This document shows positions 1,409 to 62,652 of a DNA stretch of 64,000 bases, piece by piece. This DNA comes from Escherichia coli. GTDB lineage: Bacteria > Pseudomonadota > Gammaproteobacteria > Enterobacterales > Enterobacteriaceae. The translations under genes were made by a program, and so were the position numbers. Each line of letters begins with the position of its first letter. Within the stretch, counting starts at the first letter, position 1. The DNA is taken from NCBI RefSeq assembly GCF_024298765.1, contig NZ_CP101210.1, one strand, 5' to 3'. Below the pieces are notes generated by a model. That model saw only the letters and a program-made list of their open reading frames with translations, did no database searches and was not told the origin of the DNA.

Positions 1409-2508
1409 ATGAAATTTACCGTAGAACGTGAGCATTTATTAAAACCGCTACAACAGGTGAGCGGTCCGTTAGGTGGTCGTCCTACGCTACCGATTCTCGG
1501 TAATCTGCTGTTACAGGTTGCTGACGGTACGTTGTCGCTGACCGGTACTGATCTCGAGATGGAAATGGTGGCACGCGTTGCGCTGGTTCAGCCGCACGAA
1601 CCAGGGGCGACGACCGTTCCGGCGCGCAAATTCTTTGATATCTGCCGTGGTCTGCCTGAAGGCGCGGAAATTGCCGTGCAGCTGGAAGGTGAGCGGATGC
1701 TGGTGCGCTCCGGGCGTAGCCGTTTTTCGCTGTCTACCCTGCCAGCGGCAGATTTCCCGAACCTCGATGACTGGCAGAGCGAAGTCGAATTTACCCTGCC
1801 GCAGGCGACGATGAAGCGTCTGATTGAAGCGACCCAGTTTTCTATGGCACATCAGGACGTTCGCTATTACTTAAACGGTATGCTGTTTGAAACCGAAGGT
1901 GAAGAACTGCGCACCGTGGCGACCGACGGCCACCGTCTGGCGGTCTGTTCAATGCCAATTGGTCAATCTTTGCCAAGCCATTCGGTGATCGTGCCGCGTA
2001 AAGGCGTGATTGAACTGATGCGTATGCTCGACGGCGGCGACAATCCGCTGCGCGTGCAGATTGGCAGCAACAACATTCGCGCCCACGTTGGCGACTTTAT
2101 CTTCACCTCGAAACTGGTGGATGGTCGCTTCCCGGATTACCGTCGCGTTCTGCCGAAGAACCCGGACAAGCATCTGGAAGCTGGCTGTGATCTGCTCAAG
2201 CAGGCGTTTGCCCGTGCGGCAATTCTCTCTAACGAGAAATTCCGCGGCGTGCGTCTGTATGTCAGCGAAAACCAGCTGAAAATCACCGCCAACAACCCAG
2301 AACAGGAAGAAGCGGAAGAGATCCTCGACGTTACCTATAGCGGTGCGGAGATGGAAATCGGCTTCAACGTCAGCTATGTGCTGGATGTTCTGAACGCACT
2401 GAAATGCGAAAACGTCCGCATGATGCTGACCGATTCGGTTTCCAGCGTGCAGATTGAAGATGCGGCCAGCCAGAGCGCGGCTTATGTTGTCATGCCAATG
2501 AGACTGTA

Positions 2509-2509
<1 letters not shown>
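1409..2509 (+). CDS. dnaN: DNA polymerase III beta subunit (sliding clamp)
   Basis: 366-aa ORF starting [17 protein letters not shown], ending ...VVMPMRL; begins 4 bp after dnaA stop. Confidence 0.97.
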
Positions 2510-6025
<3,516 letters not shown>

Positions 6026-6045
6026 TGGCGTTAACAATGCGAGCG

Positions 6046-6147
6046 TGCCTGATGCGCTACGCTTATCAGGCCTACGAGACTCCTGCAATATATTGAATTT
6101 GCATGTTTTTGTAGGCCGGATAAGGCGTTCACGCCGCATCCGGCAAG
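6046..6147. repeat. REP/BIME palindromic elements downstream of gyrB
   Basis: gcctgatgcgctacgcttatcaggcctac and gtaggccggataaggcgttcacgccgcatccggcaag match REP consensus. Confidence 0.6.
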
Positions 6148-6157
6148 AAGCTATAAG

Positions 6158-6190
6158 AAAAGGGCGGAGATCATCTCCGCCCTTTTTATT
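6158..6190 (+). terminator. rho-independent terminator
   Basis: aaaagggcggagatcatctccgccctttttatt: GC stem plus T-run. Confidence 0.6.
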
Positions 6191-6264
6191 CCTGCAATCC
6201 GCAATTATCATCCCACAGAACTATACTTTTTGAGTCAACACGTAACGCTTTACAGGTGATTATC

Positions 6265-6663
6265 ATGGGCCTTTTTGATGACGTTGTCGGCGCCTTTCTG
6301 AAAGGCGATGCGGGGAAATATCAGGCGATTTTAAGTTGGGTTGAGGAGCAGGGCGGCATTCAGGTGCTGCTGGAAAAACTGCAAAGTGGCGGTTTAGGTG
6401 CCATTCTCTCAACCTGGCTGAGTAATCAACAGGGCAACCAACCAGTTAGCGGCGAGCAACTGGAATCGGCGCTCGGCACAAATGCGGTGTCCGATCTCGG
6501 GCAAAAACTGGGCGTGGATACCAGTACAGCTTCCAGTTTACTGGCAGAACAATTGCCGAAGATTATTGATGCACTCTCACCGCAAGGTGAAGTGTCACCA
6601 CAAGCCAATAACGATCTGCTTTCCGCAGGCATGGAACTGCTGAAAGGGAAACTCTTCCGCTAA
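6265..6663 (+). CDS. yidB: YidB family protein (DUF937)
   Basis: 132-aa product from MGLFDDVVGAF; position between gyrB and yidA as in K-12. Confidence 0.8.
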   Translation: MGLFDDVVGAFLKGDAGKYQAILSWVEEQGGIQVLLEKLQSGGLGAILSTWLSNQQGNQPVSGEQLESALGTNAVSDLGQKLGVDTSTASSLLAEQLPKIIDALSPQGEVSPQANNDLLSAGMELLKGKLFR

Positions 6664-6777
6664 GCAAAAGGGGAGCACGCAACGCGCGTTGCATCCCCCT
6701 TTTCCCTCGGGTGTTGTACTGATTTTTGAGCGGAATCGCGTTAGCATGGGTCAGGAACCAATCTACCTGGGGAACTC

Positions 6778-7590
6778 ATGGCTATCAAACTCATTGCTAT
6801 CGATATGGATGGCACCCTTCTGCTGCCCGATCACACCATTTCACCCGCCGTTAAAAATGCGATTGCCGCAGCTCGCGCCCGTGGCGTGAATGTCGTGCTA
6901 ACGACGGGTCGCCCTTATGCAGGTGTGCACAATTACCTGAAAGAGCTGCATATGGAACAGCCGGGCGACTACTGCATTACTTATAACGGCGCGCTGGTAC
7001 AGAAGGCCGCTGATGGTAGCACCGTGGCGCAAACCGCTCTCAGCTATGACGACTACCGTTTCCTGGAAAAACTCTCTCGCGAAGTCGGTTCTCATTTCCA
7101 CGCCCTGGACCGCACCACGCTGTACACCGCCAATCGTGATATCAGCTACTACACGGTGCATGAATCTTTCGTTGCCACCATTCCGCTGGTGTTCTGCGAA
7201 GCGGAGAAAATGGACCCCAATACCCAGTTCCTGAAAGTGATGATGATTGATGAACCTGCCATCCTCGACCAGGCCATCGCGCGTATTCCGCAGGAAGTGA
7301 AAGAAAAATACACCGTGCTGAAAAGTGCGCCGTACTTCCTCGAAATCCTCGATAAACGCGTTAACAAAGGTACGGGTGTGAAATCACTGGCCGACGTGTT
7401 AGGTATTAAACCGGAAGAAATCATGGCGATTGGCGATCAGGAAAACGACATCGCAATGATTGAATATGCAGGCGTCGGTGTGGCGATGGATAACGCTATT
7501 CCTTCGGTGAAAGAAGTGGCGAACTTTGTCACCAAATCCAACCTTGAAGATGGCGTGGCATTTGCTATTGAGAAGTATGTGCTGAATTAA
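6778..7590 (+). CDS. yidA: HAD-family sugar phosphatase (Cof-type)
   Basis: 270 aa; HAD motif I DMDGTLL near N-terminus; Cof-like GDQENDIAM. Confidence 0.85.
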   Translation: MAIKLIAIDMDGTLLLPDHTISPAVKNAIAAARARGVNVVLTTGRPYAGVHNYLKELHMEQPGDYCITYNGALVQKAADGSTVAQTALSYDDYRFLEKLSREVGSHFHALDRTTLYTANRDISYYTVHESFVATIPLVFCEAEKMDPNTQFLKVMMIDEPAILDQAIARIPQEVKEKYTVLKSAPYFLEILDKRVNKGTGVKSLADVLGIKPEEIMAIGDQENDIAMIEYAGVGVAMDNAIPSVKEVANFVTKSNLEDGVAFAIEKYVLN

Positions 7591-16203: not shown

Positions 16204-16306
16204 TTACATCGTAGCCGATGAGGACGCGCCTGATGGGTGTTCTGGCTACCTGACCTGTCCATTGTGGAAGGTCTTAGATTCTCGCTGATTTCAGGAGCTA
16301 TTGATT

Positions 16307-16720
16307 ATGCGTAACTTTGATTTATCCCCGCTTTACCGTTCTGCTATTGGATTTGACCGTTTGTTTAACCACTTAGAAAACAACCAGAGCCAGAGTAATG
16401 GCGGCTACCCTCCGTATAACGTTGAACTGGTAGACGAAAACCATTACCGCATTGCTATCGCTGTGGCTGGTTTTGCTGAGAGCGAACTGGAAATTACCGC
16501 CCAGGATAATCTGCTGGTGGTGAAAGGTGCTCACGCCGACGAACAAAAAGAGCGCACCTATCTGTACCAGGGCATCGCTGAACGCAACTTTGAACGCAAA
16601 TTCCAGTTAGCTGAGAACATTCATGTTCGTGGTGCTAACCTGGTAAATGGTTTGCTGTATATCGATCTCGAACGCGTGATTCCGGAAGCGAAAAAACCGC
16701 GCCGTATCGAAATCAACTAA
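16307..16720 (+). CDS. ibpA: small heat-shock protein IbpA
   Basis: 137 aa starting [20 protein letters not shown]; alpha-crystallin domain. Confidence 0.95.
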
Positions 16721-26513: not shown

Positions 26514-26618
26514 ATATTGGACAAAACGCAAACTGTGATCGATACTCAACTATGCACTAAATACGTCAAAATTCGTGCCGAAATTGCGCGTTCTGCGCGG
26601 AACACGTATACTTTCAGT

Positions 26619-26693
26619 GTTGACATAATACAGTGTGCTTTGCGGTTACCAGCCGCAGGCGACTGACGAAACCTCGCTCCGGCGGGGTTTTTT
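26619..26693 (+). ncRNA. istR: IstR-1 antitoxin sRNA
   Basis: sigma-70 promoter TTGCGC-17nt-TATACT upstream; gttgacataatacagtgtgct complementary to tisAB leader at 26361-26381; terminator hairpin ccucgcuccggcgggg plus U-run. Confidence 0.65.
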
Positions 26694-58393: not shown

Positions 58394-59736
58394 ACCAGTG
58401 TAGTAATCAGTAATGTCAGTTTCCAGGTTGTAATGCTTTTAATCTTGATTAAAATAATCTTAATAATTTAAACTTGTTAAATATCGATGATTTTAATTTG
58501 AGAGCGTTCAGAATTCTGTGTCACGTTAAAAATTCTACAGCGTCATCACATTATTCAGCCGCCCTTCAAAATAAATGGCTAACTGCGACAATGTCAAATT
58601 CCAGCTTTGGATGGGCATTGTCCATTTCTCCTGTGCGTTCATCAGTCCCAGATAAAGTAGCTTCAACAGGCTGTTTTCATTCGGGAAAGCACCTTTAGGT
58701 TTTGGTCAGTTTCCTGAACTGGCGGTGGACTGATTCTATCGCGTTGGTTGTGTAGATCACCTTGCGGATATTCGCCGGATAGCGGAAGTACGCTGACAGA
58801 TTTTCCCTCTTGCGGCGCCAGGACTGGAGCACCACCGGATATTGCTGCCCCCGTTTCGCTTCCAGCTCATCCAGCGCCGTTTCCGACACCGCACGATACA
58901 CTGGCTTCAGGTCGGCCATGAACGCTTTATGGTGTTTTGACGCCACATATTTAATCGAGTTACGTATCTGGTGAATGACGCACAACTGTACCTCTGTCTG
59001 CGGATAAATGCTGTTTATCGCTTCAGGGAAGCCGGTCAGCCCATCCACGCAGGCAATCAGAATGTCTTCAACGCCACGGTTTTGCAGATCACTTAATACT
59101 GACAGCCAGAAGTTAGCGCCTTCGCTTTCCGACAAATACAGGCCCAGGACTTCTTTTTTGCCTTCCAGATTCAGCGCCAGTACGGTATAAACTGCCTTGC
59201 TCTGATAACACCCATCTTCGCGGATTTTATAGTGAATGGCGTCCAGCCAGACGAAGGGATAAACCTTTTCCAGCGGGCGCTGCTGCCACTGTTTTAACTC
59301 AGGAATGACTTTATCGGTAACCGCACTGATGGTAGCCGTGGAAACACTGAAGGCATATAAATCTTCGATCTCCCGGCTGATATCCTGGTAGCTCATCCCC
59401 AGCGCGAACAGGCGAATGATCTTGCGCTCGAGCTCATCAGACAGCGTGGTCTGGTGCTTCTTCACCAGTTGGGGTTCAAAATAACCATTACGATCACGTG
59501 GAGTTGCCAGCTCAAAGCTGCCAGTCGGGGCTTTAATGGTCTTTTTTCCGGAACCATTTTTACGATTGACTTCAAAATCCTGAGCCAGATGGGAGTCGAG
59601 TTCAGCGGCCAGAGCGGTTTCTGTTAACTGTTTGATTAATGGCGTTAGGATACCATCCTTGCCGGTTAATGCTTGGCCGGACTGAACCGCCCCGGAAATC
59701 CTGGAGACTAAACTCCCTGAGAAAGAGGTAAACAGG

Positions 59737-60063
59737 ATGACTAAAAATACTCGTTTTTCCCCCGAAGTCCGTCAACGGGCAGTTCGTATGGTTCTGGAAA
59801 GTCAGGGCGAATATGACTCACAATGGGCGGCAATTTGTTCCATTGCTCCAAAGACTGGCTGTACGCCGGAGACTCTGCGTGTCTGGGTTCGCCAGTATGA
59901 GCGGGATACCGGGGGCGGAGATGGAGGGCTCACCAGTGCTGAACGTCAGCGTCTGAAAGAGCTGGAACGTGAAAATCGTGAACTGCGCCGCAGCAACAAT
60001 ATCCTTCGCCAGGCTTCCGCTTATTTTGCGAAGGCGGAGTTCGACCGCCTCTGGAAAAAGTGA
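59737..60063 (+). CDS. IS629 OrfA
   Basis: 108 aa [39 protein letters not shown]... Confidence 0.88.
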
Positions 60064-60950
60064 TGGCACTGCTGGATAAGCTGCGTGAGCAGTACGGGGT
60101 CAGACCGGTATGCAGTGAACTGCATATTGCCCCGTCAACGTATTACCACTGTCAGCAACAGCGACATCATCCTGATAAACGCAGTGCACATGCACAGCGC
60201 GATGACTGGCTGAAGAGAGAGATACAGCGCGTATACGATGAAAATCATCAGTGTACCGTGTGCGTAAAGTCTGGCGCCAGTTGTTACGGGAAGGAATCAG
60301 GATGGCCAGATGTACAGTGGTGCGCCTCATGGCGGTTATGGGACTTGCCGGTGTTCTCCGGGGTAAAAAGGTCCGCACTACCGTCAGCCGGAAAACCGTT
60401 GCCGCAGGTGACCGCGTAAACCGTCAGTTCGTGGCAGAACGTCCTGACCAGCTGTGGGTGGCTGATTTTACTTACGTCAGCACATGGCAGGGCTTCGTCT
60501 ATAGTGGCGTTCATCATTGATGTATTTGCCGGATATATCGTGGGGTGGTGGGTCTCATCGTCTATGGAAACGACATTCGTGCTGGATGCGCTGGAGCAGG
60601 CGTTGTGGGCCCGCCGTCCGTCCGGCACCATCCATCACAGCGATAAAGGCTCTCAGTATGTGTCACTGGCCTATATGGAGCGATTAAAAGAAGCAAAACT
60701 GCTGGCATCAACAGGGAGTACAGGCGACTCGTATGACAACGCGATGGCGGAGAGCATCAATGGTCTTTACAAAGCGGAGGTAATACACCGTAAGAGCTGG
60801 AAAAACCGTGCAGAAGTGGAACTGGCCACACTCACGTGGGTGGACTGGTATAACAATCGACGATTGCTGGGAAGGCTGGGCCATACTCCTCCGGCAGAAG
60901 CAGAAAAAGCTTATTATGCTTCCATCGGAAACAATGATCTGGCAGCCTGA
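60060..60950 (+). pseudogene. IS629 OrfB transposase, frameshifted
   Basis: DDE transposase sequence split over three overlapping frames (60060-60419, 60251-60520, 60504-60950). Confidence 0.8.
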
Positions 60951-61097
60951 GTTCACAGATAAAACACTCTCCAGGAAACCCGGGGCGGTTCAGGACTGGA
61001 GTGCCTTAAGCGCTTTATCGAAATCGAAGGGTTGGGACATGTGTCATTCCTTTTTGGTTGTATATTACTGGAATGACACAGAATTTCTAACACTCCC

Positions 61098-62085
61098 TTT
61101 AATTTAGGTTTATTACTATTATTATACTTACTCTCTTTTTTACATGACCTCAATCTTTACGATTATATTCACTCTATCTTTACACATTCCATTACTCTTA
61201 TCCTCATCCAATTATATTCATGTCCTTCTCTAATCTTCCTTGTCACCATTATCATAATATCCACTTCTTCCCTCATTCAATCATAATTACTGTAATTCAT
61301 ACGTTACTCAGATAAGTTATTCTCTACAGCTACGCTATTGTTGATATCCATCTGTTCTCATTTTCAGTGAAACAGTAATTGATTTTAATTTATCCATCAT
61401 GAACTGTATTTGCTTAACAATGATTGTTTATCTGAAGTGTTTTAACTATTCTGGTTGGAAACAATTTCTCTGTCATCAAAGATTAACTGAATGTTTACTC
61501 TTTGATAAGGTATCCATGGTTCCGTCATGTTTAACAGCGCAGGATAAACAACAGAATTAACAGAGTGAATTTCTGATTATATTTGTTGCCGGTTGTATTG
61601 TTTAAGGTACTGGGTGAAAATTATTCATCCATTGTATGTTGTCTTATGCTATCGTGTGTCGTTAACGTTCATATCCTGGAAAACAGATTGAATAAGCGCG
61701 TGTGAGTTTATTGTGGTGACCTTATAAACGTTTTTTCAGACTCACTGAGAGCAAATTTACAAATCATGAGCTTATAGTTGTAATATGTTTCCTAACCGCC
61801 TGGCAGCGGGATTACAGTTCGTATTTTTCTGTATTTCACTGTGTTGTATTGAATCTGTATTTTCTTCGCACCTCGTTTATCTCATCTCTATAGACAATGC
61901 CATCAGATAACTCATACCCTTCAGCACAACGCTGTGTGTCGTTAATAATCCGTCGTATCCATTCTGTTACAGCATGCCTGATAAATACCATCTGTAAGTT
62001 ATTACCGTTTTAGATCTGATTATGAGCGAAAGCATTAATTCGCTCACAGAGCTTAAAACATCATTAACTTTCAGGAGTCATCAAC
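61098..62085. other. about 1 kb ORF-free AT-rich spacer with G-depleted tract
   Basis: No ORF of 60 aa or more on either strand; 61108-61300 is pyrimidine-rich on the plus strand with about six G. Confidence 0.6.
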
Positions 62086-62652
62086 ATGCCTAAATCTTAC
62101 ACACCAAACTGGTTTTTTACCGCTTTACTTGACAATCACATCAATCAAATGATGGCACGCTATTCCTGCCTGCGGGCCTTACGGATGGATTTCTTCTACA
62201 GGAAGGATACGCCTGATTTCTTACAACCTGATCATCGTTGGCTTGAATTACAACTGCGTATGCTGCTGGAGCAGGTTGAACAGTTTGAAAATATGGTTGG
62301 CTTCTTCTGGGTGATTGAATGGACGGTTGATCATGGTTTTCATGCGCATGTGGTCTTCTGGCTCGATCGTCAGAGGGTTAAAAAAATATATCCCTTTGCG
62401 GAGCGGATTACGGAATGCTGGCGGTCTATTACGCATAACAGCGGTTCGGCACACCGCTGTACATATCAGCCGCATTATACATACAACATCAACATTCCTG
62501 TGCGCCACAACGATCCTGAAAGCATCGATAATATTCGCGGTGCCCTGCATTATCTGGCAAAAGAAGAGCAAAAAGACGGGCTGTGTGCCTACGGCTGCAA
62601 TGAAGTTCCTGAACGTCCTGCTGCAGGGCGTCCTCGTAAGCCTCACTTCTGA
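62086..62652 (+). CDS. inovirus Gp2-like protein (YagK/YfjJ family paralogue)
   Basis: 188 aa; FHAHVVFWLDRQ motif region analogous to HYHVILLLNKD of the 54043 gene. Confidence 0.6.
   Translation: MPKSYTPNWFFTALLDNHINQMMARYSCLRALRMDFFYRKDTPDFLQPDHRWLELQLRMLLEQVEQFENMVGFFWVIEWTVDHGFHAHVVFWLDRQRVKKIYPFAERITECWRSITHNSGSAHRCTYQPHYTYNINIPVRHNDPESIDNIRGALHYLAKEEQKDGLCAYGCNEVPERPAAGRPRKPHF

Follow-up and report, generated by a model that had tools for sequence, protein, structure and literature searches.

The region downstream of the iron-receptor gene ireA in this Escherichia coli genome holds one insertion sequence (IS) inside the transposase gene of another, which raises the question of what the two elements are, in which order they arrived and where the defects in their genes came from. 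We analyzed the nest within a window of 64,000 nucleotides, the whole stretch of DNA under study, starting from a first-pass annotation that had described an IS629 copy within an "IS1414-like" member of the IS256 family. Almost certainly, the locus represents two successive transposition events downstream of ireA that were left as a fossil in an E. coli genomic island. The core of the earlier interpretation is upheld, since nothing we found contradicts a nested insertion, while the label of the outer element and several details had to be corrected.

The window starts at the dnaA region, and a low-GC island begins near its 50-kb mark. RNAs within it are the AsdA antisense RNA (511-591), ES036 (6068-6110), a ROSE_2 thermoregulator (16241-16313) and istR (26564-26693). 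No tRNA gene was found in the 64-kb window, and an attachment site of the island was not located there; NCBIfam scans of the neighboring island open reading frames (ORFs) returned nothing informative. The insertion site itself is intergenic and lies beyond the terminator hairpin of ireA. To the right of the nest, about 1 kb of AT-rich DNA (61106-62085; 35% GC) without a long ORF extends upstream of a gene encoding a YagK/YfjJ domain (62086-62652). A match of any kind to this stretch was obtained in 1280 E. coli genomes, and more than 1000 contain similar sequence, mostly at 80-90% identity.

The outer element occupies 58500-61097 and carries its transposase gene on the minus strand, as delimited by excision, by alignment to the uninterrupted copies L002, L003 and L004 and by the IS256-family model NF033543. 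It is bounded by 24-bp terminal inverted repeats at 58500-58523 (transposase 3′ side) and 61074-61097 (transposase 5′ side), which match at 19 of 24 positions, and by the 8-bp target duplication TTTAATTT at 58492-58499 and 61098-61105. The 5′ part of the gene (60997-61040, minus strand) begins with an ATG at 61040-61038, and its codons 1-16 take in the GGAC at 60993-60996. The 3′ part, from codon 17 onward, lies at 58535-59682 (minus strand) and is a pseudogene truncated by a stop codon at 58695-58697; RefSeq lists it as "IS256 family transposase, frameshifted". Against NF033543, the reconstructed 396-aa transposase reaches 394.8 bits (cut-off 150). This profile match, a length of ~1.3 kb with imperfect inverted repeats and a duplication within the 8-9 bp range place the element in the IS256 family.

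The inner element is an IS3-family insertion sequence of the IS629/IS1203 type on the plus strand (59683-60992; 1310 bp), delimited by its ends, its inverted repeats, an end-motif search and comparison with an O157:H7 copy. Its termini read TG...CA, and its 25-bp inverted repeats (59683-59707 and 60968-60992) contain 3 mismatches. The element starts at 59683 with TGAACCGCCCCGG, and the reverse complement of the same motif closes it at 60992. Within the 64 kb this motif occurs in two places only, both of them element ends, against 0.11 occurrences expected by chance, so that the ends of IS629 cannot be attributed to chance. The element is flanked by the 4-bp duplication GGAC, with the left copy at 59679-59682 and the right copy, read from the sequence, at 60993-60996. 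Both elements thus begin and end exactly where the first-pass annotation had placed them, and the uninterrupted orthologues agree with these coordinates.

The coding content of the inner element is typical of its family. Its orfA (59737-60063, plus strand; 108 aa) is intact and matches the N-terminal part of the NCBIfam IS3 model. Since orfA ends at 60063 and orfB begins at 60060, the two genes overlap, with a −1 programmed-frameshift signal and an ALIL frameshift-stimulating pseudoknot at the overlap (60018-60134, plus strand; Rfam RF01497, 117.6 bits, gathering score 50). With two indels repaired (see below), OrfB reaches 301.2 bits against NF033516, the model for IS3 transposases (cut-off 160). 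The element is 95.8% identical over 1310 bp to the copy in O157:H7 Z885, a reference that carries the RefSeq label "IS3-like element IS1203 family transposase" and is not the Shigella type sequence. The profile, the frameshift signal, the TG...CA ends with their duplication and a nucleotide identity of at least 90% assign the copy to the IS3 family and to the IS629 isoform group. Given that IS1203 is an isoform of IS629, that IS629 subtypes lie 4-5% apart and that IS629 generates target duplications of 3-4 bp (PMC3271280), "IS629" is a fair name for the inner element. The alignment to reference elements that had been proposed as a check is in keeping with IS629; for IS1414 it failed, at 46.8% amino acid identity.

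IS629 splits the outer transposase gene at codon 16, and the two elements lie in opposite orientations. Deleting 59683-60996 in silico, that is, IS629 and one GGAC, leaves 1284 bp with one continuous minus-strand frame, MSQPFDFDKALKALQSGQALTGKDG...RKLTKT*, which bears out the earlier claim that excision restores the reading frame. A search with the excised sequence identified uninterrupted 1296-bp copies of the outer element in EcPF14 and 2009C-3133, at an ireA site and with flanks as in the window. A single GGAC is present in L002, L003 and L004 exactly where the window has IS629. Using both outer flanks joined through one TTTAATTT as a query, we also obtained empty sites from three genomes (L010, L011 and L012): strains 1105 and 2013C-3033 have theirs downstream of ireA, and P19_598 in a related island. 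These sites read ...TTTTAATTTAGGTTTATTACT..., with the octamer present once in each. Uninterrupted orthologues and empty sites, each with the respective duplication in single copy, establish both insertions as real transposition events with the ends given above. The locus is therefore a nested insertion in which IS629 entered an IS256-family element that was already in place, as had been proposed. This order follows from the topology alone, because one element cannot insert around another.

The orfB gene of IS629 (60060-60950, plus strand) is broken into the pieces 60060-60250, 60251-60503 and 60504-60950. Compared with the functional O157:H7 copy, it lacks a G at 60250/60251 and has an additional A at 60503, 253 nt apart. 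OrfB had been described as split into three frames; there are indeed three pieces, but they occupy only two frames (coordinate mod 3 = 0, 2, 0). The first frame meets a stop codon at 60417-60419, ahead of the catalytic DDE region. As judged from the sequence, the inner element would be unable to make a full transposase and is predicted to be incapable of autonomous transposition. Together with a frameshift in the outer gene, the indels would leave both transposase genes in the window defective, in line with the first-pass annotation, and neither element is expected to be able to move on its own now.

The orfB indels probably originated elsewhere and reached this site either with a defective IS629 that was mobilized in trans or through gene conversion that overwrote a resident copy. 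The same two indels are found in L008, a complete chromosomal IS629 at an unrelated site, and in L014, a copy truncated by IS26 that lies on an IncF plasmid. The additional A alone occurs in L013 and L015, in pEK499-type plasmids (widespread IncF). The indels are shared by copies at four or more separate junctions; the right-hand junctions of these copies are not the same, and their sequences are 1.2-2.0% apart. Some observations argue against such an import. IS3-family transposases act preferentially in cis, as known from IS911, and mobilization in trans is accordingly expected to be inefficient. Distinct junctions also need not reflect transposition, since copies that recombine with each other can produce them as well. 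Finally, the distribution of the missing G is not tree-like, as L014 is only 4 nt from L015, which does not share this deletion.

Gene conversion can be demonstrated at the site itself, which favors imported indels. GPEC60-33-648 (L017) contains the same nest, with flanks, GGAC duplication and a 12-bp deletion in the outer gene identical to the window. The ends of its IS629 (locus 2491-3800) match those of the window copy, and the interior corresponding to 59847-60871 (~1 kb) has ~75 differences, contains neither indel and is annotated as an intact transposase. This interior is a clear gene-conversion patch, through which the dead copy has been "repaired". A second strain, Z1323CEC0017 (L018), has a short conversion patch at 60629-60650. 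Because of these patches, the interior of IS629 is no reliable record of what first inserted.

It seems rather doubtful that IS629 arrived in functional form and lost orfB only afterwards, through two independent single-base indels at this site, as the earlier description had implied. Such a history would fit the perfect GGAC duplication, the intact ends, the intact orfA and the intact pseudoknot of the window copy, and intact IS629 copies do occupy the same site in CFT073 and GPEC60-33-648. The identical pair of indels in L008 and L014, within other flanks, and the additional A on its own in L013 and L015 nevertheless speak against decay in place. In GPEC60-33-648, the intact interior was introduced by conversion between ends of the window type, which makes that copy derived rather than ancestral. 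In CFT073 (L016), the intact IS629 (locus 5846-7155) shares the left junction; it has 72 differences to the window copy over 1310 positions (5.5%), whereas the flanks differ by only ~0.15%, which marks it as a different sequence lineage. With the indels present in copies elsewhere and the interior exchanged by conversion, decay after insertion is not established. Nor do we regard the opposite claim, an IS629 that was "dead on arrival", as proven: CFT073 has an intact copy at the site, and L017 and L018 have conversion patches.

The CFT073 locus has further peculiarities. Its left junction reads GGAT instead of GGAC, and the right end of its IS629 is joined to papG-II of the pap operon, with GAT on both sides. 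The CFT073 genome contains neither the right flank nor the outer element's 5′ end. This arrangement looks like the product of an IS629-mediated rearrangement. Given the divergent intact IS629 and the GGAT junction, a simple history with a single insertion is not a full explanation. Import of the indels remains our preferred reading, and on balance we lean slightly toward viewing the nested IS629 not as a static fossil but as a substrate for recombination, swapping sequence with further IS629 copies. If this holds generally, gene conversion can revive "dead" nested IS copies, and the preference of IS3-family transposases for acting in cis does not keep defective variants from spreading.

The defects of the outer transposase gene can be placed relative to the arrival of IS629. 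The first is a 1-nt insertion, an extra G at 58698-58699 (GG against a single G in the intact L004), which shifts the frame beyond ...RKLTKT; the C-terminus, 53 conserved residues (KGAFPNENSLLKLLYLG...), continues in a different frame. It corresponds to the single-base frameshift that had been noted as truncating the C-terminus. Since the uninterrupted orthologues L002 and L003 have the same extra G, it predates IS629. A second defect was missing from the earlier list: 12 bp (GCTGCTTCTTTT on the plus strand) are deleted in frame at 58884/58885, removing the residues KEAA. These 12 bp are retained in L002, L003, L004 and CFT073. At the variable sites of ireA and the outer element, 8 states are common to the window and CFT073 and set them apart from the uninterrupted lineage. 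As CFT073 groups with the window and has the IS629 junction without the deletion, the 12-bp deletion occurred after IS629. The order is thus insertion of the outer element, extra G, IS629 and 12-bp deletion. The outer transposase is predicted to have lost its function.

We propose the following course of events. An IS256-family element integrated 136 bp past the stop codon of ireA, duplicating the octamer, and its transposase gene then gained the extra G near its 3′ end, at the cost of ~55 conserved residues at the C-terminus. Within one sub-lineage, an element of the IS629/IS1203 type entered codon 16 in opposite orientation and duplicated GGAC; the outer gene later lost 12 bp in frame. IS256 and IS3 families move by a copy-out/paste-in mechanism through a circular intermediate. 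By family membership, both elements presumably took this pathway, which generates short duplications from staggered cuts like those observed here. Boundaries, duplications, frame restoration, the order of the four events and both family memberships are direct observations.

Precise excision could in principle mimic part of this history. The copies in EcPF14 and 2009C-3133 would then not be ancestral but would have lost IS629, for example through the IS-excision enhancer, and the order would be unproven. Enhanced IS629 excision is documented in EHEC (bioRxiv 10.1101/2023.06.07.543989; PMC9397093). We nonetheless consider this scenario very unlikely, because 8 fixed sites in ireA and the outer element, together with the absence of the 12-bp deletion, identify the uninterrupted lineage as an older branch, separate from that of the window and CFT073; the order of insertion would in any case follow from the topology. 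Among complete genomes, we found no uninterrupted copy that combines the 12-bp deletion with window-type variants (no full-length match at 99% identity or more).

Among 5426 complete genomes of E. coli, 261 cover at least 80% of the 2801-bp region. At least 99% identity was found in 221 records, and the 30 records listed are all 100% identical. The notion that there is no true nest, and that unrelated IS256-family fragments flank IS629 or the assembly is faulty, has a negligible probability and is refuted by the continuous frame upon excision, the exact 4-bp duplication, the colinearity with the uninterrupted 1296-bp copies and the occurrence of the same structure in 261 independently assembled complete genomes. 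The nest is ordinary, being present in public genomes and annotated there as pseudogenes. RefSeq lists two of them directly downstream of ireA, first "IS256 family transposase, frameshifted" and then "IS3 family transposase, frameshifted", and a published table contains the gene order ireA:IS256:IS3 (PMC12108210).

In other strains, the scar has received further elements. GPEC673 (L005, locus 5650-6964) has a genuine IS1414 of 1315 bp with astA/EAST1 in the 5′ remnant of the outer element; its 8-bp duplication GTGTCATT corresponds to 61041-61048 of the window, resulting in three IS elements in one scar. MSHS 133 (L006, locus 4481-5809) has an ISVsa5 (IS10-type) of 1329 bp inside orfA of IS629, with a 9-bp duplication corresponding to 59871-59879, and hence a three-deep nest. 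A dead transposase gene in intergenic DNA may be a neutral target, in which case the site would tolerate insertions, and the additional IS1414 and ISVsa5/IS10 copies fit this view.

Pathogenicity islands of E. coli commonly contain nested insertion sequences that have decayed, and the significance of the present one is mostly bookkeeping. The locus can serve as a lineage marker for ireA islands, with the states empty, outer element only, nest, nest with 12-bp deletion and nest with IS1414 or IS10. It is also a compact and clear-cut case of one IS copy being converted by another.

A comparison with known systems places both elements. IS1414 resembles the outer element in its family (IS256), in its length, which at 1315 bp is close to the 1296 bp of uninterrupted outer copies, and in its 8-bp duplication. 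It differs in that astA, encoding EAST1, sits inside its transposase gene, whereas the outer element of the window is without astA. Elements are regarded as the same by the ISfinder convention above 90% nucleotide or 95% amino acid identity. The intact relative of the outer transposase and the genuine IS1414 transposase are only 46.8% identical (372 residues). With genuine IS1414 as the reference, blastn found no significant match to the outer copy of the window and a single 65-nt match (78%) to the intact relative. A tblastn search with EAST1 found nothing within 58500-61097; in the L005 element, which RefSeq annotates as IS1414, it found a match of 100% over 38 aa. Neither near identity to IS1414 nor an embedded astA ORF was thus found in the outer element, and we rejected the designation IS1414, including the earlier "IS1414-like".

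The closest system for the inner element is IS629/IS1203/IS3411 of O157:H7 and Shigella, with which it shares the length of 1310 bp, the TG...CA ends, the −1 frameshifting orfA/orfB arrangement with an ALIL pseudoknot and the 4-bp duplication. Unlike these elements, the window copy has the −1 and +1 indels in orfB, so that neither full OrfAB nor OrfB would be possible, and its slippery region (position 60060) reads GGAAAAAGTG rather than GGAAAAAATG.

For the outer element, literature searches and an exact look-up of the protein cluster gave only "IS256 family transposase" and no ISfinder name. Its intact relative is the 400-aa transposase WP_097752252.1, found in E. coli A37 (L004), Q5 and GF130. 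The 90% protein cluster of this sequence has 1884 members from E. coli, Salmonella, Yersinia enterocolitica and Enterobacter, every one of which bears the generic label "IS256 family transposase". Aligned to L004:4001-5295, the first ~800 nt of the window copy show at most 4 differences per 100 nt outside the block with the 12-bp deletion, while the last ~500 nt, which hold the 5′ third of the transposase gene, are 13-17% divergent. This mosaic pattern suggests recombination between IS variants. Over its full length, the window copy is 93.3% identical to this unnamed Enterobacteriaceae IS256-family element and shares its ends, and it differs from it by the extra G, the 12-bp deletion and the IS629 insertion.
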